Source: Dehalococcoidia bacterium (GTDB taxonomy: Bacteria; Chloroflexota; Dehalococcoidia; UBA6926). Taken from it: a stretch of 64,000 nt of DNA. Within the stretch, counting starts at the first letter, position 1. Every line of letters begins with the position of its first letter. Location: contig VXMO01000043.1 of NCBI GenBank assembly GCA_009841045.1, forward strand, positions 58,670 through 122,669. Direction: 5' to 3'. Below, piece by piece: positions 2,830-52,791 of the stretch. The position numbers were made by a program, and so were the translations under genes. The notes under the pieces were generated by a model. The model searched no databases, had not been told where the DNA came from, and worked only from the letters and a program-made list of their open reading frames with translations.

Positions 2830-3402
2830 CTATTTCACCCCCAGCGCCGGAGCCTCGCCCGGGCCATACACGCGGATTGCTGTGCTCGCGACCGCCGGTC
2901 CGGACGCCCCTTCCGGGGTCCTGCTTCCCACTGCGATCACTGTCCATACCCCGGGCGGCAGATCCTCCGGTATGGCGGGCAACAGATCGGAGCCAACGAC
3001 CATCTCAAGCGCGCCGGATGAATTCACCTGGGCGGTCCCCATCTCGTAATCGGTGGCAGCGCCACCTGCTTCACGAATGTACAGTGTCACGTCATCCCGT
3101 CGCGGGAAACCGGACAGCCTGAAAGTCACCCGTGTCGTTCCCGGAACAAGAATGACATTTGCATCAAGGGTATTGATATTGGCTTCGGGGTTGATGGCGC
3201 CCGGTCCTGCCTCGCCGGCCGCTCCCGCCTCGCCTGGTGTTCCGGGCTCTCCTGCCTGGCCGGGCGGCCCCGGCTGACCGTCAACGCCGTCAGAGCCGGG
3301 CGCTCCCGCAGGGCCTGCGGGTCCTCGCTCACCCTGTTCACCTTGCGGGCCTGTGCATGCGGCCAAAACAAGAATAAAGGCAGTAATCAGAACAAGGGGC
3401 AT
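2830..3402 (-). CDS. Collagen-like (GXY-repeat) secreted lipoprotein
   Basis: Start set to the ATG at 3402 (MPLVLITAFILVLAAC), giving a signal peptide plus lipobox Cys. About 17 uninterrupted Gly-X-Y triplets (GPQGEQGERGPAGPAGAPGSDGVDGQPGPPGQAGEPGTPGEAGAAGEAG) precede a C-terminal globular region. The track ORF extends to 3513 but its extra 37 residues look non-coding. Confidence 0.6.
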   Translation of the reverse strand: MPLVLITAFILVLAACTGPQGEQGERGPAGPAGAPGSDGVDGQPGPPGQAGEPGTPGEAGAAGEAGPGAINPEANINTLDANVILVPGTTRVTFRLSGFPRRDDVTLYIREAGGAATDYEMGTAQVNSSGALEMVVGSDLLPAIPEDLPPGVWTVIAVGSRTPEGASGPAVASTAIRVYGPGEAPALGVK

Positions 3403-3593
3403 CCAAAATGCTTTCCCTGTAAACACGCGCTGCTCCCTCCTGCCTAACCCCGCTCGACGCTGTGTAAATTGGCCGAAATACGCGCGCCAAACGGCTGAAA
3501 GACACTTAATCATATTGGCGCAGGTAGGGAACTGTCAAGAAGAAACGCCCTCAGACAGCCCAATCACCCAACACAGTTTTTCCCTGTCCCGCG

Positions 3594-3620: not shown

Positions 3621-3710
<90 letters not shown>

Positions 3711-3721
3711 TCACGCAAGAC

Positions 3722-3813
3722 GGAGAGGTGCTGGAGTGGCCGAACAGGCACGCCTGGAAAGCGTGTAGGGTCTTACCGGGCCCTCGCGGGTTCGAATCCC
3801 GCTCTCTCCGCCA
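3722..3813 (+). tRNA. tRNA-Ser (anticodon GGA), long variable arm, CCA encoded
   Basis: Acceptor GGAGAGG; anticodon stem CACGC/GCGTG with loop CTGGAAA; long variable arm; T-arm GCGGG-TTCGAAT-CCCGC. Confidence 0.85.
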
Positions 3814-3850
3814 CTTCTTTTCAACGCCCGCTCGTCCTATACACCCCCCT

Positions 3851-3890
3851 GTCATTCTGGGCGCAGCGAAGAATCCAAAGACTCCATTGC
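3851..3890. repeat. S-type palindromic repeat unit (gtcattctgggcgcagcgaagaatccaaagactcc)
   Basis: Near-identical copies at 7493-7525, 22912-22950, 23087-23120, 23199-23232 and 23408-23443. Reverse-orientation copies at 45800-45834 and 52705-52742. Confidence 0.55.
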
Positions 3891-3997
3891 ATCATGCATG
3901 CAGGAACGCGCATCGCAAGCCCCACAGACCAACCAACCTAAATCGCGAACCGGGAAAAATCTTGACCACTCACACTGAAATCGATAGCGTTGGAATC

Positions 3998-5176
3998 GTG
4001 AATGACGATCTACCATATTGGATTGCGTTCCAGCGCGTCAGTAGGCTCGGCCGGGTCAGATTTGGACATCTCGAGTCGCATTTTCCAACTCTGAAAGACG
4101 CGTGGCACGCATCAGAGTCTGACTTGCGAGCCACTCGCCTTGACGGGCGGACGGTGGACGAAATCCTCAAAACGCGCGCCGACCTCGACCCTGATGACGA
4201 GCTTGAGAGACTGCACCGTCATCGCGTCAGCGCCTACACCTGGCACGATGAGCGCTACCCTGCGCGCCTCCGCCAGATCCATGACATGCCCCCCGTCCTC
4301 TACGTCAAGGGAGAACTCAAACCGGAGGATGAACTCTCACTGGCCGTCGTTGGAACCCGCAAGGCCACGCCATACGGCCGCGAGGTCACCCGTGAATTCG
4401 TCAGAGACCTCGTGCAGGCAGGGCTCACCATTGCCAGCGGACTTGCCACCGGCATAGACTCAACGGCTCATTACGCCACCCTGCAGAATCGGGGCAGAAC
4501 GATCGCCGTCCTCGGCAGCGGTGTTGACATCATCTATCCCGCGCAGAATCGCAAGATGGCGGCGGAGATCGTGGAGAACGGCGCTCTCATCAGCGACTAC
4601 CCAATCGGCACGCCACCCATGAAAGAGAACTTCCCTCGCCGCAACCGCATCATGAGCGGCATCAGCCTTGGTTGCCTCGTCATTGAGGGGAATGAGAAGA
4701 GCGGCGCGCTGATCACTGCCCGCCAGGCTCTAGAACAGAATCGGGAGGTCTTTGCCGTCCCCGGCAGCGCCCTCAGTGAGCGCAGTCGCGGCCCCAACCT
4801 CCTCATTCAGGGCGGCGAGGCCAAGCTGGTGCTGACCTCGGAGGACATCCTGCAGGAACTCAACCTGTCCCAGGAGGATCGGCAGCTAAATTTGCCCTCG
4901 ACCTCCGAGCCTGTCGACGAAGAACAGGCCGCCGTCCTCCGTGTCCTCAGCCGTTCCCCTATCCATATTGATGAGATTTATCGCGCTTCCGGAATGTCCA
5001 TGCCGGAAGTGTCCAGTACCCTTACAATGCTTGAACTGAACGATCTCGTAAGACAGGTAGGCGGGATGCACTACGTCTTGACACGAGAGGCACATGCGAT
5101 TTACGAATCTCACAGAGGAAACAACGCTGGCGGAGAACAGCCCGAGACCAAAGCGGCCGAGAATCAGATCACTTAA
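3998..5176 (+). CDS. dprA: DNA processing protein A (Smf/DprA)
   Basis: Rossmann-like DprA core (LAVVGTRKATPYGRE...GLATGIDSTAHYATL...AVLGSGVDIIYP...FPRRNRIMSGISLGCLVIEGNEKSGALITA). GTG start at 3998, after the tRNA genes. The track ORF from 3683 runs through the tRNA. Confidence 0.8.
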   Translation: MNDDLPYWIAFQRVSRLGRVRFGHLESHFPTLKDAWHASESDLRATRLDGRTVDEILKTRADLDPDDELERLHRHRVSAYTWHDERYPARLRQIHDMPPVLYVKGELKPEDELSLAVVGTRKATPYGREVTREFVRDLVQAGLTIASGLATGIDSTAHYATLQNRGRTIAVLGSGVDIIYPAQNRKMAAEIVENGALISDYPIGTPPMKENFPRRNRIMSGISLGCLVIEGNEKSGALITARQALEQNREVFAVPGSALSERSRGPNLLIQGGEAKLVLTSEDILQELNLSQEDRQLNLPSTSEPVDEEQAAVLRVLSRSPIHIDEIYRASGMSMPEVSSTLTMLELNDLVRQVGGMHYVLTREAHAIYESHRGNNAGGEQPETKAAENQIT

Positions 5177-5191
5177 AGAGGCAATCACCGT

Positions 5192-7483
5192 ATGACAACC
5201 GGACGAAAGAAGACGACGACCACGCGCAAGACAAAGAAGGCCGCTGCATCAAGCACTGGCCGCGCAAATGGTCGCTCGTCAACGGCCCGGAGAACGAGCG
5301 CAGCATCCCGGTCTACTGTGGTTCCCGGCGCTGATGTCGTCATCGTTGAGTCTCCCGCAAAGGCCCGAACACTCTCTCGCATCCTCGGCAACCGCTACAA
5401 CGTCCTTGCCTCAATCGGCCACGTCCGCGATCTCCCCAAGAGCAAGATGGCCATCGACGTCGAGAATGATTTTGCGCCGGACTATATCGTGCCCCGTGAC
5501 AAGTCCGCTGTCGTTAAGGAAATAAAGGCCGCAACGAACGCCGCGGGCACCGTCTACCTCGCAACAGACCCCGACCGTGAAGGCGAGGCCATCTCATGGC
5601 ACCTGATGGAGGCCGCCGGCATCCCGGAAGATCGGATGCGCCGCGTCGTCTTTCATGAGGTAACGGAGAACGCCGTCCGCCGCGCCTTTGACGAGCCACG
5701 CGGCATCGACGTCGATCTCGTCAACGCCTATCAGGCCAGACGCGTCCTTGACCGCCTCGTCGGATACCGCCTCAGCCCCGTCCTCTGGAGCAAGGTGCGC
5801 AAGGGGCTGTCGGCTGGCCGCGTCCAATCCGCCGCCCTCCGCCTCGTCGTTGAGCGCGAAGCTGAAATCGACGCGTTCGTTCCTCAAGAGTACTGGGAAA
5901 TCGACGCCGATCTCCTCACGCAGGCCACACAGGCAGAAGAATTCTCGGCGCGATACCGCTCAGAGTTGGGCGCAAGCCGGCAAGCCACCATCCCGAATGA
6001 GGAGACGACCAACAGGATTCTGACAGACCTCCGCGCGAGTTCCTATCAGGTCGCGTCCGTCCGCCGCCGTGAGACAACGCGTCGTCCCGGCCCGCCATTC
6101 ATCACCTCCACGCTCCAGCAGGAGGCATTTCGCAAACTGCGGTTCACCGCCCGCCGGACCATGACCGTCGCCCAGCAGCTCTATGAAGGCCTGCCCATCG
6201 GCAATGAAGGCCCCATCGGACTCATCACGTACATGCGGACCGACTCAACCAACATGGCAAATGAGGCCGTGCAAGAAGCGCGAGCCGTCATCGGCAACCG
6301 CTACGGCAAGGACCATGTCCCCGCCTCTCCCCGCTCCTTCTCGCGTCGCGTCAAGGGAGCGCAGGAGGCCCATGAGGCCATCCGACCCACATCCTTCATG
6401 CGTGACCCTGAGTCGCTGCGAAACTCTCTGAACCGCGAGCAATTCAACCTCTACCAGCTCATCTGGCAGCGCGCCCTCGCGTCCCAGATGGCCGACGCGA
6501 AGTTCGACCAGACTACGGTGGACATCACAGCATCCGGCGCGCCTTCCGGCGTCAGCCACACCCTTCGCGTCACTGGCTCAATCATGACCTTTGCGGGCTA
6601 CCTCGCAGTCTATAGAGAGGGGATCGATGAGCCGGACATCGACTCTGATGAAGGGCGTGTCCTGCCTGATCTGCGTGAGGGACAGCCAGTCGACCTCCGA
6701 AACGTCGCGGGAACGCAGCGCTTCACACAACCCCCGCCCCGCTTTACGGAAGCCACGTTGATTAGGGCTCTGGAAGAGCGAGGCATCGGACGCCCCAGCA
6801 CCTACGCCGCCATCCTCAGCACAATCCAGGACCGCGGCTATGTTGACAAGGCGGACAACCGCTTTCGACCTCTCAAACTCGGTACGGCGGTGTCCGGTCT
6901 CCTCTCCGAGTATTTCCCACAGGTGTCCAGCCTGGATTTCACCTCGCGCATTGAGGAGGAGCTGGACGACGTTGCGCGTGGCGAGCGTGAGTGGGTGCCC
7001 GTCTTGCGTGATTTCTACGGGCCGTTCAACGAACGCATCGACACCGCGCAGGAAAAGATTGAGCGCGTCAGCAACATTGACGAAGAGACAGACGAAGTCT
7101 GCCCGGAGTGCGACGCGAACATGGTCATCAAGCGCGGCCGCTACGGTCCGTTCCTCTCCTGCTCGCGGTTCCCGGAATGTCGCGGCATGAAGCGCATCCA
7201 GAAGGGCACCGGCGCCAACTGCCCCGAGTGCGGCGGCGAACTCGTCCAGCGATCATCCCGCAAGTCCCGACGCCCCTTCTACGGCTGCTCCAACTATCCC
7301 AACTGCAACTTCCTCACCAACCAGGAGCCGCTCCCACAGCCCTGCCCTGACTGCGGCGGCCTCGTCGTTGCCACCAGCCGAACCGATGCCGCATGCAATG
7401 ACAAGGAATGCGGCTGGCAAGGCTCCCGCGAGGAACTCACTGCCGAGCAGCCACAACCGGAACCTCAACTCGTCGAAGTCTAG
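5192..7483 (+). CDS. topA: DNA topoisomerase I
   Basis: Toprim and topo IA domains (VIVESPAKARTL...YLATDPDREGEAISWHL...). Three C-terminal C4 zinc ribbons. Lys/Arg-rich N-terminal extension. RBS AAAGAGG lies 9 nt upstream. Confidence 0.95.
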   Translation: MTTGRKKTTTTRKTKKAAASSTGRANGRSSTARRTSAASRSTVVPGADVVIVESPAKARTLSRILGNRYNVLASIGHVRDLPKSKMAIDVENDFAPDYIVPRDKSAVVKEIKAATNAAGTVYLATDPDREGEAISWHLMEAAGIPEDRMRRVVFHEVTENAVRRAFDEPRGIDVDLVNAYQARRVLDRLVGYRLSPVLWSKVRKGLSAGRVQSAALRLVVEREAEIDAFVPQEYWEIDADLLTQATQAEEFSARYRSELGASRQATIPNEETTNRILTDLRASSYQVASVRRRETTRRPGPPFITSTLQQEAFRKLRFTARRTMTVAQQLYEGLPIGNEGPIGLITYMRTDSTNMANEAVQEARAVIGNRYGKDHVPASPRSFSRRVKGAQEAHEAIRPTSFMRDPESLRNSLNREQFNLYQLIWQRALASQMADAKFDQTTVDITASGAPSGVSHTLRVTGSIMTFAGYLAVYREGIDEPDIDSDEGRVLPDLREGQPVDLRNVAGTQRFTQPPPRFTEATLIRALEERGIGRPSTYAAILSTIQDRGYVDKADNRFRPLKLGTAVSGLLSEYFPQVSSLDFTSRIEEELDDVARGEREWVPVLRDFYGPFNERIDTAQEKIERVSNIDEETDEVCPECDANMVIKRGRYGPFLSCSRFPECRGMKRIQKGTGANCPECGGELVQRSSRKSRRPFYGCSNYPNCNFLTNQEPLPQPCPDCGGLVVATSRTDAACNDKECGWQGSREELTAEQPQPEPQLVEV

Positions 7484-7492
7484 CCCACTCTT

Positions 7493-7588
7493 GTCATTCC
7501 TAGCGCAGCCGAGGAATCTAGAGCCTCACTTGCGCCGCCCAACCCGGTAACGCCACTCCCCGCTCACCCTGAGCCTGCCGAAGGGTGT
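7493..7588. repeat. Composite S + P-fragment + L palindromic repeat units
   Basis: gtcattcctagcgcagccgaggaatc ... ccggtaacgccactcccc ... gctcaccctgagcctgccgaaggg. Same family as the array at 22903-23700. Confidence 0.5.
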
Positions 7589-7619
7589 CTCTTTTTCAAA
7601 CCTGGTCTAAAATAGTGGT

Positions 7620-8669
7620 ATGGCACTCAAACCAGCCCTCGCTCCCGACCAACCCGCGGACGCCACGACAATCCCACAGGAATGGACGGCCCGCCTGCAA
7701 GACTTCGCCGCGTTCCTCGAATACGAACGCGGCGCGTCTCGCTACACCCTCCGTAACTACATGGGCGACATCGGCCTCTTCCTCCAATTCCTGGCGGATG
7801 AGGGCGTCAAACAACTGCCGGACGCCACCCGCGACCACGCGCAGCGATGGGTCTATGACCTGACGATGGACGGCTCGGCCCGTTCCTCCATCGCCCGCCG
7901 TCTCTCAGCGCTCCGCTCCTTCTGGCGCTTTCTCGCCCGAGAGGGCGTCATTGAAAACCCCGAAGTAATCACAAAGACCCCCTCACCCAAGATCGGCCGT
8001 CGCCTGCCGGATCTCCTCTCCGAACGAGATGCCGAGCGACTCGTCCACGCGCCGCTCCGGTTCGCGGAGAGCATTGATGCATCAACCGTAGACAAGCAGC
8101 AGGCTCTCCAACGTGCCCTCGCACTGCGAGACTACGCCGTCCTGGAACTCGCATATGGCGCGGGACTGCGTGTGGCGGAAATCGCCTCCCTGAATCTGGC
8201 CGGCCTTGATCTCCGCAACCGTGTCGCGCGGGTGTGGGGTAAACGCTCAAAGCAGCGCGAGACGCTCTTTGGAGAACCGTGCCGGGGGGCCCTGTCCATG
8301 TATCTCAACGATGCCCGCCCCCTGCTCGCCCGTGGCATCAGGACACGCGCCGCAGTCTTTCTCAACAGCCGCGGCGGACGCCTGACCACGCGCGGCATTG
8401 AACTCTCCCTCAAGAAATGGGCTCGCGCCGAAAACCTGCCGGAAGACATCCATCCCCACACCCTTCGTCACTCTTTCGCGACGCATATGCTGGACGGCGG
8501 CGCTGATCTAAGGCTCGTGCAGGAAATGCTCGGGCACGCCTCCGTCGCCACCACGGAGATCTACACGCACGTCTCACAAGCGCAGATGGCGCAGGCCTAC
8601 GCCCGCGCCCACCCCGGCATGAACCGCGACGATGATAGTGAATCTCAACGAAACAACGTTGCTGACTGA
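7620..8669 (+). CDS. xerC: Tyrosine recombinase XerC/XerD family
   Basis: Catalytic box RHSFATHMLDGGADLRLVQEMLGHASVATTEIYTHV. N-terminal SAM-like core-binding domain. Confidence 0.85.
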   Translation: MALKPALAPDQPADATTIPQEWTARLQDFAAFLEYERGASRYTLRNYMGDIGLFLQFLADEGVKQLPDATRDHAQRWVYDLTMDGSARSSIARRLSALRSFWRFLAREGVIENPEVITKTPSPKIGRRLPDLLSERDAERLVHAPLRFAESIDASTVDKQQALQRALALRDYAVLELAYGAGLRVAEIASLNLAGLDLRNRVARVWGKRSKQRETLFGEPCRGALSMYLNDARPLLARGIRTRAAVFLNSRGGRLTTRGIELSLKKWARAENLPEDIHPHTLRHSFATHMLDGGADLRLVQEMLGHASVATTEIYTHVSQAQMAQAYARAHPGMNRDDDSESQRNNVAD

Positions 8670-10225: not shown

Positions 10226-10783
10226 ATGATTGAGACGGGCGACCTAAGGCGTGGCGTAACCATTGAGATCGGCGGCACGCTTTACCAACTACTTGACTTT
10301 CACCACCTCAAGATTGGACGCGGCTCCGCCCAGGTCCGCATGAAGCTGCGCGACATCAAGGGTGGGCACACCATCGAGCGCACCGTACAGGCGGGTGAAC
10401 GCTTCACCCGAGCCACGCTTGAGACCCGCTCAGTTCAGTTCCTCTACAGCGAGGACGGCCTCTATCACTTCATGGACACGGAATCCTTTGAGCAGTTCCC
10501 CGTAGACCGGGACCAGATCGAAGATTCTCTGCCCTACATGATTGAGAACATGAACCTGGACATGGTCTTCTACCAGGACGCGCCCATCGGCGTTGAACTC
10601 CCGACCACCGTCACGCTGAAAATCGTAGAAACGCCCCCTGCGTTCAAGGGCGACACCGCCAACGCCGGCACCAAACCCGCCACGTTGGAAACCGGGCTCG
10701 TCATCACCGTCCCCATGTTCGTCGAGAACGGCATCGCCGTCGTCGTCGACACCCGCACCGGCGACTACGTGGAGCGCGCCTAA
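10226..10783 (+). CDS. efp: Elongation factor P
   Basis: 185 aa with a KOW-like N-terminus carrying the conserved lysine (HHLKIGRGSAQVRMKLRDIKGG) and two OB domains. Confidence 0.95.
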   Translation: MIETGDLRRGVTIEIGGTLYQLLDFHHLKIGRGSAQVRMKLRDIKGGHTIERTVQAGERFTRATLETRSVQFLYSEDGLYHFMDTESFEQFPVDRDQIEDSLPYMIENMNLDMVFYQDAPIGVELPTTVTLKIVETPPAFKGDTANAGTKPATLETGLVITVPMFVENGIAVVVDTRTGDYVERA

Positions 10784-10798
10784 CCTTCTCATGGAGCA

Positions 10799-11467
10799 AT
10801 GCGCGCAGACTTCCACATCCACACTCGCGTCTCTCCCGACTCCCAGCTAACCCCGGAAGCCCTCATCCGCGCCTGCCAACGCAAGGGCATCGATATTATC
10901 GCCGTCACGGATCACCACGCCATCCGCGGCGCGCTTGAAGTCCGGGAGATAGCCCCGTTCCCTATCATCATCGGCGCAGATCTCAGAACGGCGGACGGTG
11001 AGATTGTCGGCCTGTTCCTTGAAAAGGACATCCCCTGCGGTCTCTCCGCCAAAGAGTCCGTCAAGCGCATCAAGGACCAGGGCGGCATCGTGCAGGTGCC
11101 CCACCCGTTTGACAGATTCCGTCGCAAACGCATCACCCTGCCCGCCCTGATGGATATTCTCCCGGACGTAGACCTCATCGAGGCGTTCAACGCTCGCACG
11201 ACCCTCAGAAGGGATACCATGCTCGGCGTGGAGTTCATTCGTGAGCACAGGGAAAAACACAACATCCGGCCCGTTGGCGTTTCGGACGCGCATACCGCCC
11301 GCGAGATTGGCAACGCCTACACGGATATCCCCGCGTTCGAGGGCCGCGAGGACTTCATGGACGCTCTACGCCACGCATCCATCCACGGCAAGCGCACAAC
11401 CCCACTTATCCACCTCACCACCCACTGGACGGTACTCAGCAAGAAAATAGGTTTGGCGCGCTCCTAA
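10799..11467 (+). CDS. PHP-domain (polymerase/histidinol-phosphatase-like) metal-dependent phosphoesterase
   Basis: MRADFHIHTRVSPDS ... IDIIAVTDHH ... GIVQVPHP. PHP motifs. Confidence 0.7.
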   Translation: MRADFHIHTRVSPDSQLTPEALIRACQRKGIDIIAVTDHHAIRGALEVREIAPFPIIIGADLRTADGEIVGLFLEKDIPCGLSAKESVKRIKDQGGIVQVPHPFDRFRRKRITLPALMDILPDVDLIEAFNARTTLRRDTMLGVEFIREHREKHNIRPVGVSDAHTAREIGNAYTDIPAFEGREDFMDALRHASIHGKRTTPLIHLTTHWTVLSKKIGLARS

Positions 11468-19059: not shown

Positions 19060-19161
19060 TGGATACGTGAATCAGGTGATGCCCATGTGGCGTTTACGGC
19101 AGAACAAGCAGGGAAACTCCAGTCTCCCAGACCCATCACCAATCATAGCACCCACCCCTTC

Positions 19162-19245
19162 GTCATTCCCGTGCGTGACACGGGAATCCAGTGCGGCGCA
19201 CAGCGCCGCCTCTCCCTTGATGGGGGAGGGTTAGCGCGTCGTGGA
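19162..19245. repeat. V-type palindromic repeat unit plus adjacent hairpin
   Basis: gtcattcccgtgcgtgacacgggaatccagtgcggcgcacagcgccgcctc, followed by CTCCC-TTGATGG-GGGAG. Same family as the 22903-23700 array. Confidence 0.5.
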
Positions 19246-21149: not shown

Positions 21150-22901
21150 TTGAGTGCAGGCTGCATGAGTCAAATTCGCTACGAACCTGAAGAAAACTGC
21201 CCGCCGTTAACAGCGGTAACCGCAGCTTTACAGATACTCATACCCAACACTATCAGCCTCGTTCTGCTGACGGCGCTGGTAGTGCGCGCAGCCGGCGAAT
21301 CCGATGCCTACCTCTCTTGGGTCACCTTTACCGCCCTCGTCGTCACCGGCGCCGGCATGATCCTGCAGACGCTGCGATTGCGTCATCTGGGCGCTGGCCG
21401 GCTTGTTGTCGCGAACTTCAATGTGCCTTTCCTGGCCGTGTGCGCTCTGGCGCTCTCCGTGGGCGGACCCGGATTGCTGGCCAGTCTGGTGGTGGCGTCA
21501 ACCCTCATTCAGGCCGTCCTGACTTTTCGTCTCGCCTCTCTCCGCCTCATCTTCACACAGACAGTGAGCGGAATCGTCGTCATGCTCGTGGCGATATCGG
21601 CCATGCCATTCATCATCGGCAGAGTGGTCACACCGCCGGAAGGCGAGTCAACCCTGGTGTTCCTTGCGCCGGGCCTGGCCGCCCTGGCTGTCGGCGTTCT
21701 CATCGCCCTGCAGGACAGGCCCGTGTGGCGCATGTGGATCCTCACAATCACCGTCGCAGTCGGAATGCTGGTCGCCGTGCCTCTGGGCTTCTATGACACG
21801 AACCCCATCGCCGAGGCCCCCTGGGTGAGCCTGCCTCTCTACCCATGGCCTGCCCTGGATATCGCCTTCAACGCCGATTTCTGGACCCTCCTGCCGGTCT
21901 TCGTACTCGTGAATCTCACCGGATTTATGAAGGTAGTGGGCGACCTGTCTGTCATCTATCGCGCCTCCTACCGCCGGCAATCCGCCGTTGACTTTCGCGC
22001 GGTTCAGGGAGGCCTGAATGTCTACGGCATCGGCACCTTTGTGTCCGGCCTCCTGGGGACCCTGCCTGTCGCCGCTCCATGGTCGTCCACTGCCGTGTAT
22101 ATCGGCTTCATCGGCGTTGCGGCCAGAAATGTTGGACTGTACCTGGGTGTGCTGACCATCATCGCCGCCTTCTTTTCCAAGTTCCTTGCCGTCATTGTCG
22201 CCATTCCCAGCCCCGTCGTCAGCGCGGTATACATCATCATCTTTGCCATGCTCTTTGTGGAAGGGGCCAAAACCGTCTTCACCGGACAGATTGACCAGAA
22301 AAAGGCCGCCATCACCGGCGTCTCTATGGTGATGGGCTTGTCTGCGGTGGCATTGAGCCGCCTCTTCGAGGGCAACGTCGGCCATCTTGTCAGCAACCCT
22401 ATTGTCGTCGGCGGCGCGGTTGCCATCGCCATGACACTGATCGCCCAGATGCCGCGTCTACGCGCGAGCACACTGCGGATCGACTTGTCTCCGGCCTCCC
22501 CGGCCGCTGTCGATGAATTCCTCGGCAGGTTCGCGGACAAACAGTCGTGGACAGAGGAGGGGGCGAACCGGCTGCGTCTTGTCGGAGAAGAAGCCATCCT
22601 CAGCCTGCTCGAATCCGGAAAGGAAGGCGCCTCCCCACAGAAGCGTTCGCTGGTCGCTACAATCAGCCCCGACGGCGCTTCCGCCGAGCTTGAGATTATC
22701 GTCGCCTCCAACGACGCCATCCAGGGCAACATTGAGGATCGCATGGCCTATCTCGGGCAGGATCAGGCGCTGGAAGACGAGCAGGAACTGTCCGTCCGCA
22801 TCCTGCGCCACTACGCCTCATCCGTGCAGCACCGCCAGTACTACGGCATCGACATCGTCAACTGCCGCGTCACAGATAACCAGCGAGAACGCGTCCGCTA
22901 A
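21150..22901 (+). CDS. NCS2 (xanthine/uracil permease) family transporter with ~150-aa C-terminal cytoplasmic extension
   Basis: Resembles XanQ/UraA (YGIGTFVSGLLGTLP...AARNVGLY, IPSPVVSAVYIIIFAMLFVEGAKTV). About 12 predicted TM segments. Confidence 0.65.
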   Translation: MSAGCMSQIRYEPEENCPPLTAVTAALQILIPNTISLVLLTALVVRAAGESDAYLSWVTFTALVVTGAGMILQTLRLRHLGAGRLVVANFNVPFLAVCALALSVGGPGLLASLVVASTLIQAVLTFRLASLRLIFTQTVSGIVVMLVAISAMPFIIGRVVTPPEGESTLVFLAPGLAALAVGVLIALQDRPVWRMWILTITVAVGMLVAVPLGFYDTNPIAEAPWVSLPLYPWPALDIAFNADFWTLLPVFVLVNLTGFMKVVGDLSVIYRASYRRQSAVDFRAVQGGLNVYGIGTFVSGLLGTLPVAAPWSSTAVYIGFIGVAARNVGLYLGVLTIIAAFFSKFLAVIVAIPSPVVSAVYIIIFAMLFVEGAKTVFTGQIDQKKAAITGVSMVMGLSAVALSRLFEGNVGHLVSNPIVVGGAVAIAMTLIAQMPRLRASTLRIDLSPASPAAVDEFLGRFADKQSWTEEGANRLRLVGEEAILSLLESGKEGASPQKRSLVATISPDGASAELEIIVASNDAIQGNIEDRMAYLGQDQALEDEQELSVRILRHYASSVQHRQYYGIDIVNCRVTDNQRERVR

Positions 22902-22902
22902 T

Positions 22903-23700
22903 CCTCCCATGTCATTCCGAGCGGAGCGCAGCGGAGTCGAGGAATCCAAAGACTCAATTGCGCCACTCAACCCCGTAACCGCACTCCCCTCATTCCTGCG
23001 AAAGCAGGAATCCATCGGGACTCCTCACCGTCATTCCCGTGAACGCGGGAATCCAGTGCTGCGCGCAACGCCTCTCATGTCATTCCGAGCGCAGCCGAGG
23101 AATCCAAAGACCCACGTACGCCACTCTACTCCGTAACCACACTCCCCTCATTCCTGCGAAAGCGGGAATCCAGTGCGGCGCGCCAGCGCCGTCTCTCATG
23201 TCATTCTGAGCGCAACGAAGAATCCAAAAACTCCAATCCTCCGCCGAAGCCGGAACGCGGCTGCCAAACTGCACTGGCCAGACAATCTGGAACACGAACC
23301 GAGAGCCGTAACGCAGTTACCCGCTCGCCCTGAGCCTGTCGAAGGGTGAGCACCCCCCTCCGTCATTCCCGTGAACGCGGGAATCCAGTGCTGCGCGCAA
23401 CGCCTCTCATGTCATTCTGAGCGCAGCGAAGAATCCAAAGCCTCAATTGCGCCCCCCAACCCCGTAACCGCACTCCCCTCATTCCTGCGAATGCAGGAAT
23501 CCATCGGGACTACCTCACCTTTGGTGGGGGAGGAGTAAGGTGGGGCAACACAACCCCCGCTCGCCCTGAGCCTGTCGAAGGGTGAACCCCAATCCGTCAT
23601 TCCCGCGAAAGCATGCCCCGTACCCCGATACGGGGCGGGAACCCAGTGCGGCGCGCAGCGCCGCCTCTCATGTCATTCTGAGCGCAGCCGAGGAATCAGT
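22903..23700. repeat. ~800-bp mosaic array of small palindromic repeat units (REP/BIME-like), four unit types
   Basis: Interleaved unit types: S (gtcattcYgagcgcagcgaRgaatccaaagac), P (ccgtaaccgcactcccctcattcctgcgaaagcaggaatcc), V (gtcattcccgtgaacgcgggaatccagtgcKgcgcgcaacgcctc) and L (cgctcgccctgagcctgtcgaagggtga). Each carries an internal hairpin. Spacing is irregular with two unique inserts of ~90 nt and ~50 nt. No coding potential. Confidence 0.8.
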
Positions 23701-24130
23701 GCATTCTGCAATCGGCAAGCAGTTTATCTGCTCTACGAGACATAGGGCAAAGCATGTCGATTCTACTCGGCTGTCGGAAAGCGCTTACTTGTCTCCTCTA
23801 TAACATCCGGTAGGGTACATCCGTGATTACACGACGCTACTCTGGGTGGCTTGATTGGATACCGCTCTCGGATATCTCGCAATGATCCCGGTGTGAGTGG
23901 AATTCTGAACTCGACCCATGTTCCGTATCGGCGGACTGTGATTATGTGCCCCTTAAGGTTCCGCCTGTCTTCATTCTGATGGAGACGTGGGGTCTCTACA
24001 TGTGACCGGTGTCGTTCTCGCAGAAGAATCGATGGTCGACCATGGTGCCAACAGAAGACCTTTGGGTGCTTTCCGCTAATCACAACATTCCGCAAATCAT
24101 CCGCAGCAATGGGAGCGAGGGTCTGCCCTA

Positions 24131-25000
24131 CTACACTGCAAGATCAAATGGCAGATCACTGATGTCACGCAGTCGGTTCCCTGCAACCATGGCTTCCAAC
24201 ATCTCGGACTGATCTGCGAGGCTTGGTTCGGATGCACAGACTTTCCGTAGCTCACCGAGTGCAAAATGATATACGCAGTCCAAATCCCCTGTTCCAAGCG
24301 CTAGAGATGCTATTCGCATCGGCAAGGGTTCTGCAGTGACAGCAACAATGTGGGGCAAATTACCTTTCCGATTGCGAATCAGATTCAGGGCCTCAGTTCG
24401 AGTGTTCTGTGATCGGTCGCTCCGGATTGTCCACTTGCATGAAATGCTGGCATGCAATAAAGGGGTTTCAGGGCTCATGTTTCCCTGTATGAAAGGGGTA
24501 AGCGTGGCCACCTCGTCTTGGGAAAGGAAATCTCCTCCAGAGTCTACTTCTCCCTTAGCAACAGGTTGCCGCGCTACGACGATATCAGGAGTGACTACGT
24601 AGCCATGGCCTAGGGCTGAGGCCAGCGCGTGGTTCTCGTTGACCAAGCTCTCTATCGCCTCAAGGTGGGCGTACTGGACGAAATTGGATATTTTTGTCTG
24701 GCCAACCTTATAAGTCCATTGGCCGGGGCGTAAGTGTGCGAGCGAATCAAATGCAGTTCGGATGAATTCGCAGGTCAGGCCTTCAAATCGTGACCCCGCA
24801 GTCTGTCCAGAGATCTGCTGTGCGCCACGTTGTTGTCGAAGCCCAAGTTCTTCTACAAGGCCGTTTCCAATACGGATGCTCGACTGACTACTGCCATCAG
24901 CGAAGTTGGGGAACCGTCTGTTGTTGCGTACTGAGAACCGCAGAATTTGAGAGCCAACCATGCGGTGGTAATCTCGCCGCATAGACACCAATCTTGTCAT
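24131..25000 (-). CDS. Type II restriction endonuclease, NgoMIV/Cfr10I-like
   Basis: Immediately downstream of the methyltransferase in the same operon, inside a low-GC island. Atypical active-site arrangement: PD139 (TPDIVV), S-C-K189 (HASISCKWTIRSDR), E203. By recollection this matches the Cfr10I/NgoMIV/Bse634I variant of the PD-(D/E)XK fold. Confidence 0.6.
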   Translation of the reverse strand: MTRLVSMRRDYHRMVGSQILRFSVRNNRRFPNFADGSSQSSIRIGNGLVEELGLRQQRGAQQISGQTAGSRFEGLTCEFIRTAFDSLAHLRPGQWTYKVGQTKISNFVQYAHLEAIESLVNENHALASALGHGYVVTPDIVVARQPVAKGEVDSGGDFLSQDEVATLTPFIQGNMSPETPLLHASISCKWTIRSDRSQNTRTEALNLIRNRKGNLPHIVAVTAEPLPMRIASLALGTGDLDCVYHFALGELRKVCASEPSLADQSEMLEAMVAGNRLRDISDLPFDLAV

Positions 25001-25011
25001 TTCGCTACGGC

Positions 25012-25902
25012 CTATCCACTCCTGACTAAGCGAGCAAGCGTCGAAGTTTCGAGCCGACTCTGTGCCAACTCAACATAGTCGGGATTAATTTCCATCAGGA
25101 TTGCACTTCGGTCTAGTTCTGCCGCCGCAACACCGGTAGTTCCAGAACCGGCAAATGGGTCGAGTATTATATCCCCAGGTCGACTACCCAGCAGAATGCA
25201 ACGCTTCGCGAGTTCTCTCGGAAACGCGGCAGGGTGTCCTCCTGACGTAGTGTCGGGACCAAGAATCCAATAGTTTCTAAGGTTGGCTCCACTCTCCTCA
25301 CGAAATCCACTGTTGTCGTAGTAGTAATGAGCTGACTTCGCAAAGAGGAATACATCCTCAGTGGCATTTGACGGTCGGTTCTTCACGCTCTCTGGCATAG
25401 GTGCCCTCTTCACCCACGTAATTCTGGATCGCAGTATCCAGCCATCTTCTTGAAGGGCAAAGGCTACACGCCATGGAATCCCCATCAGGTCTCTGTCTTT
25501 CAATCCCCATGTGGAGGGCACTCGCAAGTTTCTTTTCTGGATATCTTTCTTAGTATTGGCCACCTGAGCGTTAGGACCGTGCCGCCCAACGCCTCCGTTA
25601 CGTGCATATCCGTCACCGATGTTGAGCCAGAGAGTTCCGTCATCAGACAAGGCGCGCCGAACTTTTCGAAAAAGATGAACGAGATCGTCCACGTACTGTT
25701 GAGGAGAGCTTTCAGCTCCGAATTGCTCGTCGTGCCCGTAGTCCCTTAGTCCCCAGTAAGGTGGGGACGTAACACAGGATTGAACGGATGCGGGTGCCAA
25801 ATCGTCAAGCAAGTGTTGGGCGTCGCCAAGGAGAATCTCCACCGTCTTCGGTACAGGGAGGCGACCTGCTTTGAGGTCATCCCTAATCATCTCTTTCCCC
25901 AC
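25012..25902 (-). CDS. DNA amino-methyltransferase (N4-cytosine or N6-adenine), beta class
   Basis: Motif IV TSPPYW near the N-terminus and motif I LDPFAGSGTTGVAA near the C-terminus (beta-class order). An SPPY motif favours m4C-type enzymes. Confidence 0.85.
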   Translation of the reverse strand: MGKEMIRDDLKAGRLPVPKTVEILLGDAQHLLDDLAPASVQSCVTSPPYWGLRDYGHDEQFGAESSPQQYVDDLVHLFRKVRRALSDDGTLWLNIGDGYARNGGVGRHGPNAQVANTKKDIQKRNLRVPSTWGLKDRDLMGIPWRVAFALQEDGWILRSRITWVKRAPMPESVKNRPSNATEDVFLFAKSAHYYYDNSGFREESGANLRNYWILGPDTTSGGHPAAFPRELAKRCILLGSRPGDIILDPFAGSGTTGVAAAELDRSAILMEINPDYVELAQSRLETSTLARLVRSG

Positions 25903-26124
25903 TTTCCCGCGCCGTCACCCAACAATTGAGAATCCTGTAGTGACCCCAATAGATATAGTGGCACAACAGCGCCGCTGATTCGCGGACGGCATAGTCTTCT
26001 GGGCTAAAAGGATTCTCGGTCATCAAAGTCTAGCCTAACATCCCCGATGCTCTAAATGTCTTTAGGCCTGCCACTATCATTCCCACGCAGACCGGAATCC
26101 ATCCTTCTACCCCCAAAACCCTAA

Positions 26125-31989: not shown

Positions 31990-32733
31990 TTAGTAGTCGA
32001 ACCCCAGCCCCTTCTCTTTCATGCTGACAACACGATTTCCCTCGTTGTGGGCAACAACGATATGGTCGAGCACTTTGATATCCAGCGCCTTGCCCGCCTC
32101 AACAAGATGACGCGTGGTCCGCTCGTCATCTGCGCTCGGAGTGGGGTCTCCTGACGGGTGGTTATGAACGACAATGATGCTGGGCTGATTTCGCCGCACG
32201 GCCTCACGGAACACCTCTGCAGTCCTCACGTGAGATGAATTGACGGTTCCTCGATACAGGCTCTCTACATGGATCACCTGATTCTTCGTGTCCAACACAA
32301 GAACGCGCAGTTCTTCATGGTCCAGGAACACCATGTCCGAGCCCACCACGTTATAGACATCCTCCGGCCCAGAGATAACGGGGCGCTGCTCCGGCGACAC
32401 ATCTAGCAGTCGCCGCCCGAGTTCCAGAGCAGCCTTGATTTGCGCGGTCTTGGCGACGGCCATGCCGGGCTGGCGGGCAAGCTCGTCAAATGTTGCCTGG
32501 TGTAGCCCTTTGAGCCCACCGAGGTCACGGAGCAACCGCGTTGACATGGTGAGAACGCTCTCATTTCGCCTGCCGACGCGGAGGAGGATTGCGAGAAGCT
32601 CGGAGTGGCTCAGAGCCTGTGCGCCCCGATCTCTCAGACGCTCGCGCGGCCTTTCATCCTGTGGCACATCCCGTATTAGTAGGCTCGCGGAGTATTCCAG
32701 ACGCCCCGCGTATTCCTGCTCGTCCCCAATCAT
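31990..32733 (-). CDS. radC: RadC-like JAB/MPN domain protein
   Basis: HhH N-terminal region and JAMM motif HNHPSGDPTPSADD. Start ATG at 32733. Confidence 0.85.
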   Translation of the reverse strand: MIGDEQEYAGRLEYSASLLIRDVPQDERPRERLRDRGAQALSHSELLAILLRVGRRNESVLTMSTRLLRDLGGLKGLHQATFDELARQPGMAVAKTAQIKAALELGRRLLDVSPEQRPVISGPEDVYNVVGSDMVFLDHEELRVLVLDTKNQVIHVESLYRGTVNSSHVRTAEVFREAVRRNQPSIIVVHNHPSGDPTPSADDERTTRHLVEAGKALDIKVLDHIVVAHNEGNRVVSMKEKGLGFDY

Positions 32734-32831
32734 GGTCCGACCCCCGACACGCCGGCCTCGACCGGCCAAGAGACAAGAAAACGGTGGCCTGTCGTCGTAA
32801 CAGGCCACCGGATCTGTTCGACTTCAGTTTG

Positions 32832-38855: not shown

Positions 38856-39737
38856 CTACCCGCTCCGTTTGATCAATTCCGCCGAGCCGCTCTGGCTTGA
38901 GGAGATTGCAGCCTTTCGTGTGTTTAGGCTGCCGGTCTTGTATCCGGAAAGATCCAGTGTCACAAAGAGGTAGCCCAGATCACGAATGTGGTTGATCAAG
39001 TCCTCGCGCAGGTCCTCAGCAATCAGGCGGTGCATATCCTCGGGCGGGACTTCAATCCTGGCAATAGCACCGTGATGACGCACACGAACATGCCTGAAGT
39101 CGTGTTCATGAAGATATTTCTCCGCGCGGGCAATCTTGTCCAGAAGCTCGAATGAGACGGGCGTGCCCAATGGAATACGGGAGGCAAGGCACGACTCAGC
39201 AGGCTTATCCCAGTTAGGCAGACCTCGCTCACGAGCCAATTGGCGTACCTCGCCCTTGCTGAGGCCGACCTCTACAAATGGGCTGCGAACACCTTGCTCG
39301 TCCTTTGCCTTAAGTCCCGGGCGCACATCTCCCAGGTCATCGGTGAGAGTACCGTCAAGCACCCACGGAATCCCGCGCTCCTCGGCAATCGTACGCAACT
39401 GCGAGAATAAGTCGACGCGACAGAAATAACAGCGACGACCGTCGTTGGCCGCAAAGCCCTCCATATCCAGTTGGTCGGTGTAGAGAAACTCGTGGCGAGC
39501 ATTCAGGAATGCGGCAATGTCCCGCGCGTCTTCGGCCTCGGAATCAGCGAACGTTGGCGAGAGAGCGGTTACCGCAAGGGCATCATGCCCCAGAACATCA
39601 ACCGACTCGGCGAGAAGGAGGCTGGAATCAACCCCTCCCGAAAACGAAACGACAATTGAACCCATCTCTCGCAACAGAGAGCGCAGTCTCTCCCGTTTTT
39701 CTGCAATCTCAGGAGTCACAGCGAAATTGGCGTTCAT
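38856..39737 (-). CDS. larE: LarE-like PP-loop ATP pyrophosphatase (sacrificial sulfur insertase family)
   Basis: PP-loop SFSGGVDSS and C-terminal Cys-containing region. Stop overlaps the radA start. Confidence 0.75.
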   Translation of the reverse strand: MNANFAVTPEIAEKRERLRSLLREMGSIVVSFSGGVDSSLLLAESVDVLGHDALAVTALSPTFADSEAEDARDIAAFLNARHEFLYTDQLDMEGFAANDGRRCYFCRVDLFSQLRTIAEERGIPWVLDGTLTDDLGDVRPGLKAKDEQGVRSPFVEVGLSKGEVRQLARERGLPNWDKPAESCLASRIPLGTPVSFELLDKIARAEKYLHEHDFRHVRVRHHGAIARIEVPPEDMHRLIAEDLREDLINHIRDLGYLFVTLDLSGYKTGSLNTRKAAISSSQSGSAELIKRSG

Positions 39738-41149
39738 GGTGATCTCCCACCAGGAGAGGAGACTTCAAGGTCGCTGGGCTGTGGGTATTCGGAAAGAGCC
39801 AGCTCAACTGCCTCATGAAGGGTTGCGACAGGAACGACCGTGATGACTGTTTCGAGGGCAGGAACGGCATCGGGAGGCGCGATAATGCGTCGGTAGCCGC
39901 GGCGAGCAGCCTCATTGATGCGGCGTTGGAGTTGGGGAACCCGCCGGATATCACCCGTAAGGCCAATCTCCCCGACTGCCGCCAGATCAGGCGCGGCAGG
40001 AACATCACGAAGGCTTGAAACGATGGCGAGCGCGAGCGCAAGATCCGCAGACGGGCTCGTAACGCGCAGCCCGCCGATGGCATTGACGATAACGTCGTGC
40101 TTTCCGAGCGGCAGCCGCAGGCGTCGTGAGAGAACGGCGCATATGAGGAGCAGCCGATTGAAATCAATGCCCGTCGCCATGCGCCGCGGGTCTGCCCCGC
40201 CGGACGGAGCAACGAGAGCCTGTATCTCAACCAGCAGGGGGCGCGTTCCCTCCACGATGGGCGTGACGATGGAACCCGGCGCAGTGGACGTTCGTTCCTG
40301 CGTAAGGGCAGCGGAGGGATCACCCACCTCGCGCAGGCCACTGTCAGTCATTTCGAGGACGGCAATCTCATCCGTGGAGCCGAAACGATTCTTGACGCAC
40401 CGGGCAACACGATAAGGTCCAAGACCCTCGCCCTCCAGGTAAAGAACAACGTCAACTGCATGCTCAAGCACGCGCGGACCTGCAATCGCGCCGTCCTTGG
40501 TCACGTGGCCCGTCATGATGATGGAAACGCCGCGCCGACGCCCCCATTCGACTAGCCGCGCCCCACACTCCCGCACCTGCGCCACAGTTCCCGCAGATGA
40601 CCCAGCATCAGTCCTGAGCGTTTGAATGGAATCAATGAGCAGCAGATTCGGCGGGCTGTCACTGAGCGCCTGCAAGAGTGCATCGATATTCGTCTCGGAC
40701 GACAACGTCACTCCGCCGCCTGCTAGCGAAAGTCGAGCGGCGCGGAGGGCGATCTGCTCAGGAGATTCCTCTCCCGCCACATACACCACACTCGCTCCCG
40801 CTTGCCCCAGCACGGAGGCAATCTGGAGCAGCAAGGTTGATTTACCAATGCCGGGTTCGCCTCCGAGCAGGACCACGCTGCCGGGTATGACACCGCCGCC
40901 AAGAACGGTCATAAGCTCCGGCATTGTTGATACTGCAATCCGTGACGGTTGCGTGGCAGCCTGTTCCATGACGGACGTCAGCGCGGCAGGCGGAGGAGCA
41001 GGCTCCAGGACGCCCGTTGCTAGATCACTGGATTCCGCGGTGACCTCAACAAGCGATCCCCACGTTTCGCACCGGGGGCAACGCCCCTCCCAACGGGACG
41101 ACCCCGCCCCACAAGCCGTACAGCTATAGGAAACGCGCGGTCGTGGCAT
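39734..41149 (-). CDS. radA: DNA repair protein RadA/Sms
   Basis: N-terminal C4 zinc finger (CTACGAGSSRWEGRCPRCETWG), RecA-like Walker A GGEPGIGKST, KNRFG motif, Lon-like C-terminal domain. Confidence 0.95.
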   Translation of the reverse strand: MPRPRVSYSCTACGAGSSRWEGRCPRCETWGSLVEVTAESSDLATGVLEPAPPPAALTSVMEQAATQPSRIAVSTMPELMTVLGGGVIPGSVVLLGGEPGIGKSTLLLQIASVLGQAGASVVYVAGEESPEQIALRAARLSLAGGGVTLSSETNIDALLQALSDSPPNLLLIDSIQTLRTDAGSSAGTVAQVRECGARLVEWGRRRGVSIIMTGHVTKDGAIAGPRVLEHAVDVVLYLEGEGLGPYRVARCVKNRFGSTDEIAVLEMTDSGLREVGDPSAALTQERTSTAPGSIVTPIVEGTRPLLVEIQALVAPSGGADPRRMATGIDFNRLLLICAVLSRRLRLPLGKHDVIVNAIGGLRVTSPSADLALALAIVSSLRDVPAAPDLAAVGEIGLTGDIRRVPQLQRRINEAARRGYRRIIAPPDAVPALETVITVVPVATLHEAVELALSEYPQPSDLEVSSPGGRSP

Positions 41150-44920: not shown

Positions 44921-45017
44921 CAAGTCCCCTGACGTTGCGCTTGAGCGCACAGTGATGGTGCAAGTATACACCGCATCGGTCACGCAACGCATTTGATTTC
45001 TTAGGTTTGACGGTATC

Positions 45018-45767: not shown

Positions 45768-45774
45768 CGCATCC

Positions 45775-45834
45775 GGAATCTTCATTGAGTAACCAGTGGA
45801 GTCCTTGGATTCTTCGCTGCGCTTAGAGTGACGG
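45775..45834. repeat. S-type palindromic repeat unit, reverse orientation
   Basis: ggagtccttggattcttcgctgcgcttagagtgac is the reverse complement of the S unit. Confidence 0.45.
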
Positions 45835-45867
45835 ACAAGGCGGCGCGCCAGGGTATACGCTTTCTGA

Positions 45868-52704: not shown

Positions 52705-52742
52705 GGAGTCTCAGCATTCTTCGCTGCGCTTGGAATGACATG
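52705..52742. repeat. S-type palindromic repeat unit, reverse orientation
   Basis: tctcagcattcttcgctgcgcttggaatgacatgg is the reverse complement of the S unit. Confidence 0.45.
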
Positions 52743-52791
52743 GCGCGGGGCATGACGTGAGAAGGCGGTGGTCAGTAGAATGCGTAGCAAC

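Follow-up and report, generated by a model that had tools for sequence, protein, structure and literature searches.

What are the short repeats packed into the gap between two convergent genes of a Dehalococcoidia genome, and what kind of protein acts on them? The locus in question is positions 22903-23700 of a 64,000-nt stretch of contig VXMO01000043.1 (assembly GCA_009841045.1; Chloroflexota); the whole stretch is referred to below as the window. An earlier note, made from the sequence alone, had described this locus as a mosaic of four interleaved palindromic elements, S, P, V and L. Judged by their sequence, the P units are copies of dRS3 and of the oriented motif that contains it, the Neisseria Transformation Sequence (NTS). 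We consider it probable that the array as a whole is an intergenic mosaic of Ssn-related motifs (SRMs) with the architecture of a Neisseria intergenic mosaic element (NIME), and that its hairpins are acted on by an Ssn-type nuclease encoded elsewhere in the genome.

The two systems invoked here are known from the following work. As described in the main text of Chenal 2025 (PMC11893778), the NTS, CGTCATTCCCGCGMAVGCGGGAATCYRG, is an oriented superset of the 20-bp dRS3 palindrome ATTCCC-N8-GGGAAT. Its partner, SsnA, is a 94-aa single-domain GIY-YIG nuclease that binds the NTS hairpin in single-stranded DNA (ssDNA) only and cuts upstream of the NTS on one strand only, leaving the reverse strand and RNA untouched. 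According to the same text, cleavage at the NTS was shown for the Neisseria and Wolbachia enzymes and modulates the integration of transforming DNA. Within the NTS, the flanks of the palindrome are critical: the triplet in front of it and the C that follows. SRMs flank ssnA homologues in many phyla and are rarely found inside genes, and SRM-rich genomes are enriched among symbionts (PMC11893778, main text). NIMEs consist of dRS3 inverted repeats flanking repeat sequence (RS) elements of 19-214 bp (Parkhill 2000; Bentley 2007, PMC1797815), and arrays of them were stated to be unseen outside Neisseria (Bentley 2007, PMC1797815).

The assignment of P is based on direct matches. The P unit at 23029-23056 agrees with the NTS consensus at 27 of 28 positions, and exact dRS3 matches are located at 23033-23052 and 23365-23384. 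In approximately 343 kb of related Dehalococcoidia loci, which are referred to here as the relatives (individual loci are cited as L with a number), we found 60 dRS3 matches and 46 exact 28/28 matches to the NTS. The SRM search pattern fits P at 23029 and 23361, the P unit with its companion hairpin Q (P-Q) at 19161, and the S unit at 7492. S and V have the oriented flanks (G/C)TC-ATTCY...RGAAT-CC in common with P, the first triplet being GTC, but CTC in V, while their stems differ. V, S and a hybrid unit depart from dRS3 itself (ATTCCT, ATTCYG), and the other S and V copies fail the strict SRM pattern.

The array begins 1 nt past the stop codon of a Xan_ur_permease gene (21150-22901, PF00860). 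It is a non-coding mosaic sited between convergent genes, which confirms the earlier statement that the stretch has no coding potential, and a search of 22903-23700 for promoter-like or terminator-like sites revealed none. Units were called by nhmmer with profile hidden Markov models (HMMs) trained on the relatives' copies alone, window copies excluded. These independent models returned 13 units, all on the + strand and head-to-tail: five S, three P-Q, one V/P hybrid, two V and two L. The earlier note had counted about 12 copies of four elements; to these are added two linkers that recur within the array, the Q hairpin (four times) and a sequence that we call RSa (three times). The 64-kb window contains 14 occurrences of the core common to S, P and V, TCATTCY-N8-16-RGAATC, versus 0.13 expected from dinucleotide shuffles, and four of the L core versus 0 expected from shuffles.

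Read from the left, the array opens with a long variant of S, GTCATTCCGAGCGGAGCGCAGCGGAGTCGAGGAATCC (22906-22954; E 2e-9 with the relatives' HMM), and the non-hairpin RSa linker of about 42 nt (22947-22988). RSa constitutes direct-repeat family D1, with 85-94% identity, and was also traced by fuzzy search; its further copies are found at 23105-23146, at 23436-23477 and after the S unit at about 7521-7527. The first V unit, CTCATTCCTGCGAAAGCAGGAATCCAT, has an 8-bp stem and a GAAA loop (22985-23019; hairpin z score -4.45). It is followed by a P-Q unit (23028-23073), whose P is CGTCATTCCCGTGAACGCGGGAATCCAG and contains the first of the dRS3 matches, and by an S unit (23075-23111; E 2e-13). At 23143-23196 a V/P hybrid hairpin, recognized by direct reading as well as by the HMMs, precedes a long Q hairpin, GCGGCGC-GCCA-GCGCCGT, and a further S unit occupies 23196-23232. 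A unique spacer covered by no repeat family (23233-23318) leads to the first L unit, GCTCGCCCT-GAGCCTGTCGA-AGGGTGAGC, with a 9-bp stem and an 11-nt loop (23319-23352; repeat family D7 and the L core, besides the HMM). Then come a P-Q unit bearing the second dRS3 match (23360-23404; family D4, 95% identical to 23020-23095), an S unit (23407-23443) and a V unit (23474-23508). In the second spacer (23509-23554), a G-rich motif, TTGGTGGGGGAGGAG, is similar to the stretch that follows the dispersed P-Q unit (approximately 19215-19235). The array ends with an L unit (23555-23589; L core and HMM), a P unit whose loop holds a nested second hairpin (CCCCGTA-CCCCGA-TACGGGG) together with a long Q hairpin (23594-23668; from folding and the HMM), and the last S unit (23668-23697). 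The two unique spacers of the earlier description thus stand, but the rest of the inter-unit DNA is mostly made of repeat families, namely RSa and Q.

Taken together, this layout amounts to a permuted higher-order repeat, (RSa-V-P-Q-S)n, whose 332-bp period recurs at 94-95% identity. Since its units are interleaved rather than tandem, Tandem Repeats Finder reported no repeat in the array. At 23147-23175, the hybrid joins a 5' half from V to a 3' half from P, and it is therefore a recombinant between unit types. Along with the 332-bp duplication, it provides evidence that the array was built by recombination or template switching between units. Separately, the same organism is represented in an independent short-read assembly by a Logan contig of SRR9841446 (L242), which matches window positions 23612-25617 at 100% identity and is broken within the array. 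Arrays of this kind break up short-read metagenome-assembled genomes (MAGs), in which they are probably under-represented.

Folding supports most of the unit types. Stems of 7-9 bp are significant for P, V, L and the long Q linker (z -2.5 to -4.5 versus shuffles). The earlier claim that each element contains a perfect internal hairpin is wrong for S, whose weak stem of 5 + 2 bp has a z score of about 0 and is no better than shuffles. A P unit of the array carries a T:G pair within its stem. The P-Q unit is a two-hairpin element, and its two hairpins vary in different ways. Hairpin 1 (ATTCCCG.../...CGGGAAT) is near-invariant across 67 distinct copies, the single exception being one compensatory change from C:G to T:A. 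Hairpin 2 (Q) keeps its structure while its sequence varies (GCGGCGC/GCGCCGC, ACGGCGC/GCGCCGT, GCCGCCC/GGGCGGC). In the alignment of these copies, 91.6% of the cells are paired, and slid controls fall to 32-48%; double-change cells number 44 versus 10.8 in shuffles (none of 500 shuffles reaches 44), with compensatory changes in five of the seven Q pairs. Therefore, the P-Q structure appears to be under selection. The nested-loop variant of P (23594-23646) recurs in a relative (L161, 877-951), so that it is a member of the family and not an accident.

A candidate partner gene is found in the relatives. In L155 (Dehalococcoidia, CBDBNN01), the minus-strand gene at 377-691 has a product of 104 aa whose single domain is GIY-YIG (PF01541, 58 bits), and on both sides, at most 60 bp away, the gene is accompanied by P-Q units that share its orientation. 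Its orthologues in L234 (10001-10315, +) and L235 (1523-1837, +) are bracketed by P-Q units in the same manner, and the orthologous proteins P0003 and P0002 are encoded on contigs of 1.9 Mb and 1.6 Mb. In an SRM/NTS-Ssn system, ssnA is a cd10448-type gene for a single-domain GIY-YIG protein of about 95-105 aa, as a rule with SRMs on its flanks; we class the Dehalococcoidia genes as putative Ssn-type genes by their PF01541 domain and flanking units. A sequence search of the PDB with the Dehalococcoidia GIY-YIG protein gave spurious WD40 matches only. Flanking units also accompany GIY-YIG genes in two proteobacterial loci (L176 and L187). In a viral contig from IMG/VR (L103), a GIY-YIG gene of about 95 aa (10850-11134, -) has three flanking S-type units, TCATTCTGAGCGAAGCGAAGAATC (10700-11250), which indicates that S is also an SRM type.

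The arrangement of repeat, nuclease gene and repeat is not fixed in place. L155, L234 and L235 are 82-92% identical and have the order rho, a gene for a 1390-aa protein, and meaB in common; the ssnA-like module sits in a different intergenic gap in each of the three. Three different gaps within one syntenic block imply that the SRM-ssnA-SRM module moves. The L155 protein is 65-70% identical to proteobacterial proteins (Rhodanobacter, Sphingopyxis), and the 28-nt NTS consensus is identical in Neisseria and Dehalococcoidia. This cross-phylum conservation of protein and motif is unusually high and suggests horizontal spread of the module. The units of the relatives can also enter genes. The MeaB orthologues of L155 (833-1840, -), L234 (10600-11643, +) and L235 (7032-7979, +) are 88-90% identical in amino acid sequence but differ at one site immediately ahead of the P-loop: a P-Q unit encodes an in-frame insert of 20 aa in L155 and a V unit one of 14 aa in L234, and L235 has no insert.

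The orientation of the units is coupled to strand composition. The analysis covered 38 Dehalococcoidia loci. In 31 of 31 single-orientation blocks, the motif lies on the strand of negative GC skew: 23 blocks combine the + orientation with negative skew and eight the - orientation with positive skew, with none discordant (Fisher p 1.3e-7). The skew of the seven mixed blocks is mostly near zero (five within ±0.05; not L144 and L178). The rule holds after masking 300 nt around every unit, and the L units obey it too. Orientation is independent of the direction of the flanking genes (++ 17, -- 17, +- 22, -+ 16). The skew of the window's + strand is negative from position 1 to about 45 kb whatever strand the genes are on, and all units there are +. 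The skew turns weakly positive at 44000-46000, and a head-to-head S-like pair (45750 +, 45800 -) stands at the switch. The earlier note had reported copies in both orientations; this is true of two inverted copies in the window, both located to the right of the switch, but not of the array. The switch may mark the breakpoint of an inversion, or an origin that lacks the usual signs; a test for an origin at 45 kb found no dnaA and no cluster of DnaA boxes.

The leading strand of a bacterial chromosome is usually the G-rich one. In the window, the genes for r-proteins, tuf and nusG are on the G-rich strand. If the leading strand is G-rich, the strand that SsnA could cleave coincides with the lagging-type strand, which serves as template for the leading strand. 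What is exposed as template of the lagging strand would then bear the non-cleavable complement only. In our reading, the polarity serves to avoid self-cleavage; alternatively, the repeats may spread in a strand-specific way. Leading and lagging strands are unmentioned in the main text of Chenal et al. (PMC11893778).

The array is also located exactly at the junction of two variably present cassettes. In the window, the order is aspS, P-Q, Cache-domain gene, permease gene, array, 430 bp, endonuclease gene, methyltransferase gene, V-like unit, sigma-70 gene; the restriction-modification (R-M) genes are identified by Pfam as an NgoMIV-type endonuclease (24131-25000, -) and an N4/N6 methyltransferase (25012-25902, -). 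The closest retrievable relative, L236 (CAYOPL01, 88% nt identity), has aspS, the Cache and permease genes, 130 bp with one L unit and a shared terminator hairpin, and then sigma-70. A segment of 3.2 kb (22889-26113), comprising the array, the 430 bp, the R-M genes and the V-like unit, is absent from it. Conversely, L241 (82-85% nt identity) is without the Cache-permease cassette and runs from aspS through 180 bp with a degenerate SRM remnant to the NgoMIV endonuclease, the methyltransferase, a helix-turn-helix (HTH) controller and sigma-70. In more distant relatives, the right-hand neighbor of the permease gene is different each time. The R-M segment has 52% GC versus approximately 60% elsewhere. 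Since each cassette is present or absent among sister genomes, the array marks a cassette junction, as the recombination model of NIMEs predicts (PMC1797815), and the earlier suggestion of an insertion hot-spot at an R-M island is borne out by a site that varies between relatives and borders NgoMIV-type R-M genes.

Three details of this region may be noted in passing. The 430 bp between the array and the endonuclease gene (23701-24130) have about 50% GC and no counterpart in L241. Within them, a 110-aa open reading frame (ORF; 23763-24095, -) has no Pfam match. The HTH_3 controller gene that adjoins the methyltransferase gene in L241 is missing from the window.

We propose the following mechanism. 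When the DNA becomes single-stranded, during uptake or transfer, recombination, repair or replication, the motif strand would fold into hairpins. By analogy with SsnA, an Ssn-type GIY-YIG nuclease whose gene lies elsewhere in the genome would bind these hairpins and cut the strand just upstream, the expected site being 5' of GTCATTCC. Such an enzyme would recognize P, and perhaps paralogues or a tolerant enzyme recognize S and V. Cleavage would modulate the recombination of the flanked DNA, and recombination or template switching between units would build and reshuffle the array. The same exchange between units could make the site a hot-spot for the gain and loss of cassettes. With the cleavable strand confined to the C-rich, lagging-type strand, the lagging-strand template would be free of it, and self-cleavage at forks would thereby be avoided. 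The window does contain genes for the processing of incoming ssDNA: S, RSa and L units occupy both intergenic gaps of a cluster of dprA, topA and a gene for an xerC-like recombinase (3683-8669), and radC (31990-32808) and radA (39734-41149) are encoded further on. Their presence is relevant to a function of the Ssn type.

Several observations weigh against this proposal. No GIY-YIG gene was detected in the 64-kb window by tblastn with GIY-YIG homologues as queries (E > 0.1) or by Pfam scans, and a look-up of the clusters of 10 SsnA homologues did not lead to the source MAG. The Dehalococcoidia that do carry ssnA are moderately related to the host (74% amino acid identity in the permease). S, the commonest unit type of the array, forms no convincing hairpin, and one S only fits the SRM pattern. 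L is a different hairpin that lacks the ATTCC core and has no demonstrated protein partner. Finally, the polarity argument assumes the rule of a G-rich leading strand, which the positions of the r-protein, tuf and nusG genes support only indirectly.

The first of these points leads to the alternative that survives best, although we regard it as unlikely: the repeats could be relics or selfish sequences that descend from a cross-phylum SRM-ssnA element and persist by homologous recombination and slippage, with no nuclease acting on them. A window without ssnA would be expected under this explanation. It would also account for the degenerate units (the T:G pair in a P stem, the V/P hybrid, the unit at 26076 and the weak S stems), and the similarity of the L155 protein to proteobacterial proteins suggests horizontal spread of the module. 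However, the 31 concordant blocks and the compensatory changes speak for selection, or a strand-specific process, that is still under way. Moreover, several related genomes contain the families in large numbers and in well-conserved form. Distinct copies in the relatives number 46 for S, 64 for P-Q, 9 for V and 58 for L, and array density reaches 19 cores in 8 kb (L178). These counts indicate that the four families are truly dispersed in the clade, in agreement with the earlier description of a dispersed repeat family.

A role at the RNA level seems less likely still. The hairpins would then act as 3' stabilizers, processing sites or terminators between convergent genes, and the relation to Ssn would be incidental. 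The location of the array between convergent genes and the single copies at 2715 and 7490 after stop codons are compatible with such a role, and the stable hairpins of P, V, L and Q with their covariation would fit an RNA structure equally well. On the other hand, there are no U-tracts or terminator-like sites in the array, and an Rfam search of the window (gathering score; E <= 10) returned tRNAs and noise only. The orientation of the units tracks GC skew and not the direction of neighboring genes, and the invariant sequence of hairpin 1 with its oriented flanks points to recognition by a protein, as in the ssDNA target NTS. An RNA-level role is thus disfavored as the primary one, and it is possible as a side effect.

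The earlier note had likened the array to the bacterial interspersed mosaic elements (BIMEs) of E. coli, which are built from repetitive extragenic palindromes (REPs), and had suggested mobilization by RAYT/IS200-like transposases. A RAYT is a REP-associated tyrosine transposase, an IS200/IS605-like Y1 enzyme. BIMEs are defined by REPs in alternating orientation with linker motifs, and the REP head in RAYT systems is of the GTAG type. Short intergenic palindromes, mosaic clusters and dispersed copies are indeed features in common, and the main text of Chenal et al. itself likens NTS-ssnA-NTS to REP-RAYT (PMC11893778). Nevertheless, actual multiplication of these units by a RAYT is very improbable. 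The Pfam-annotated ORFs of the window (about 55, mostly housekeeping genes) include no Y1/RAYT transposase and no insertion sequence, and none was found in the Pfam-annotated relatives L234-L241; the bracketed gene, where present, is GIY-YIG. All 13 array units are direct rather than alternating, and their conserved 5' flank, GTC-ATTCC, is unlike the REP head. The BIME analogy is therefore fair as a description of how the array may work, but it does not extend to family membership. Other classes were rejected: a CRISPR array, which the earlier note had rightly set aside, by at least four repeat types, 'spacers' that are mostly repeats themselves and Pfam scans without cas genes; a miniature inverted-repeat or Correia-type element, in which terminal inverted repeats bound a body of 100-300 bp and a target-site duplication is present, by the lack of long inverted repeats in 22700-23900 and by units that are single hairpins of 25-55 nt; and an integron on its architecture and the lack of intI.

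The same families recur at eight further intergenic sites of the window, and every dispersed copy named in the earlier note (at about 2718, 3851, 7493-7588, 19162, 26068, 45775 and 52705) exists and is intergenic. An L unit lies directly after the stop codon of a CNNM/CorC gene (2715-2745, +; L core and relatives' HMM). An S unit is placed between two tRNA genes and dprA (3847-3883, +), and an S-RSa-L module between topA and the xerC-like gene (7490-7588, +). The P-Q unit at 19159-19214 (+), between the Cache-domain gene and aspS, both on the minus strand, is kept in L127 (OZ242203.1) and L131 (CBDEUZ01), which are syntenic with the window at 11.9-21.5 kb (87-88% nt identity). The right edge of the R-M island carries a degenerate V-like unit (26076-26101, +; weak HMM match, E 0.09-0.16). 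The head-to-head pair at the skew switch spans 45750-45835 and consists of an S-like unit (45750-45781, +) and an S unit (45800-45835, -), and an inverted S unit is found upstream of a tRNA gene (52714-52743, -). A scan of a genome collection with the P-Q junction GGGAATCCAGTGCNGCGC gave many matches in a group of Dehalococcoidia MAGs of approximately 1.9 Mb, and the S pattern was found in 117 stretches of viral contigs overall.

Two ORFs of the window deserve mention in their own right. The tyrosyl-tRNA synthetase ORF (52915-54951) encodes 678 aa with an N-terminal B3_4 domain, an unusual fusion. This domain normally occurs in the PheRS beta subunit or stands alone. Between the L unit at 2715 and the tRNA genes, a 227-aa ORF (2830-3513, -) contains a collagen triple-helix repeat (PF01391).

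NIME arrays were long held to be a peculiarity of Neisseria, and the partner enzyme Ssn was identified only in 2025. The same dRS3/NTS mosaic is now seen beside variable genes in an uncultured Chloroflexota lineage whose genome measures about 1.9 Mb, and this speaks for spread of the SRM-Ssn module from one phylum to another and for its repeated building of recombination hot-spots. If the coupling to skew is genome-wide, either Ssn acts in vivo on replication-associated ssDNA or the repeats spread in a strand-specific manner. A bolder extension, which we put forward as a doubtful possibility, is that in this Dehalococcoidia clade SRMs form a genome-wide strand-polarized signal, similar in logic to Chi or KOPS, and that the Ssn-SRM pair serves as a strand-aware surveillance of ssDNA, distinguishing self from non-self or monitoring genome architecture. 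If so, ssDNA of the wrong polarity (incoming transforming or conjugative strands, inverted segments, reversed forks) would be cut at SRM arrays, and arrays at cassette junctions, such as the one beside the R-M island, would be preferred points of cutting and recombination. With the cleavable strand restricted almost entirely to the C-rich strand, the chromosome's own lagging-strand template would never be a substrate, and the role of the system would go beyond modulating transformation.

Among known systems, the Rickettsia palindromic elements (RPEs) also occur in frame inside genes; they measure about 100-150 bp and are longer than SRM units. The in-frame inserts in the relatives' meaB resemble them, and the window differs in that no unit was seen inside its genes. 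With BIMEs and REP-RAYT, the array has in common short intergenic imperfect palindromes in linker mosaics, which a small nuclease or transposase, encoded by a gene between such repeats, presumably processes in the form of ssDNA hairpins; it differs in the class of its proposed partner, GIY-YIG rather than HUH/Y1, its direct units and a window free of RAYT.

The likeness to the SRM/NTS-Ssn system is closer. The P units agree with the NTS at 27 of 28 positions here and at all 28 in relatives, the flanks are oriented alike, the units are rarely inside genes, and the SRM-ssnA-SRM architecture is present in related Dehalococcoidia. The host may be a sponge symbiont, as the naming style of the MAGs suggests; if so, it would fit the enrichment of SRM-rich genomes among symbionts. 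In contrast, the window is without ssnA, and S and L lie outside the published consensus; the GC-skew polarity and the bipartite P-Q unit are features absent from the main text of Chenal et al. (PMC11893778).

With respect to NIMEs, the host belongs to the Dehalococcoidia (Chloroflexota) and not to Neisseria, so that the array has a NIME-like architecture without being a NIME in the taxonomic sense. The permease and the restriction enzyme of the window are 100% identical to proteins annotated as belonging to a Dehalococcoidia MAG (P0121, P0244). Here, at least three ATTCY-type variants (S, P and V) are interleaved with the unrelated hairpin L, P carries the second, covarying hairpin Q, and all units are co-oriented and track GC skew. 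The features in common are the 20-bp dRS3 core in P, the alternation of hairpins with short recurrent linkers (RSa and Q), which as RS elements of 20-45 nt fall towards the lower limit of the 19-214 bp known for NIMEs, and an intergenic array whose length varies among relatives and which adjoins variable genes, in this case an R-M cassette and a permease cassette.

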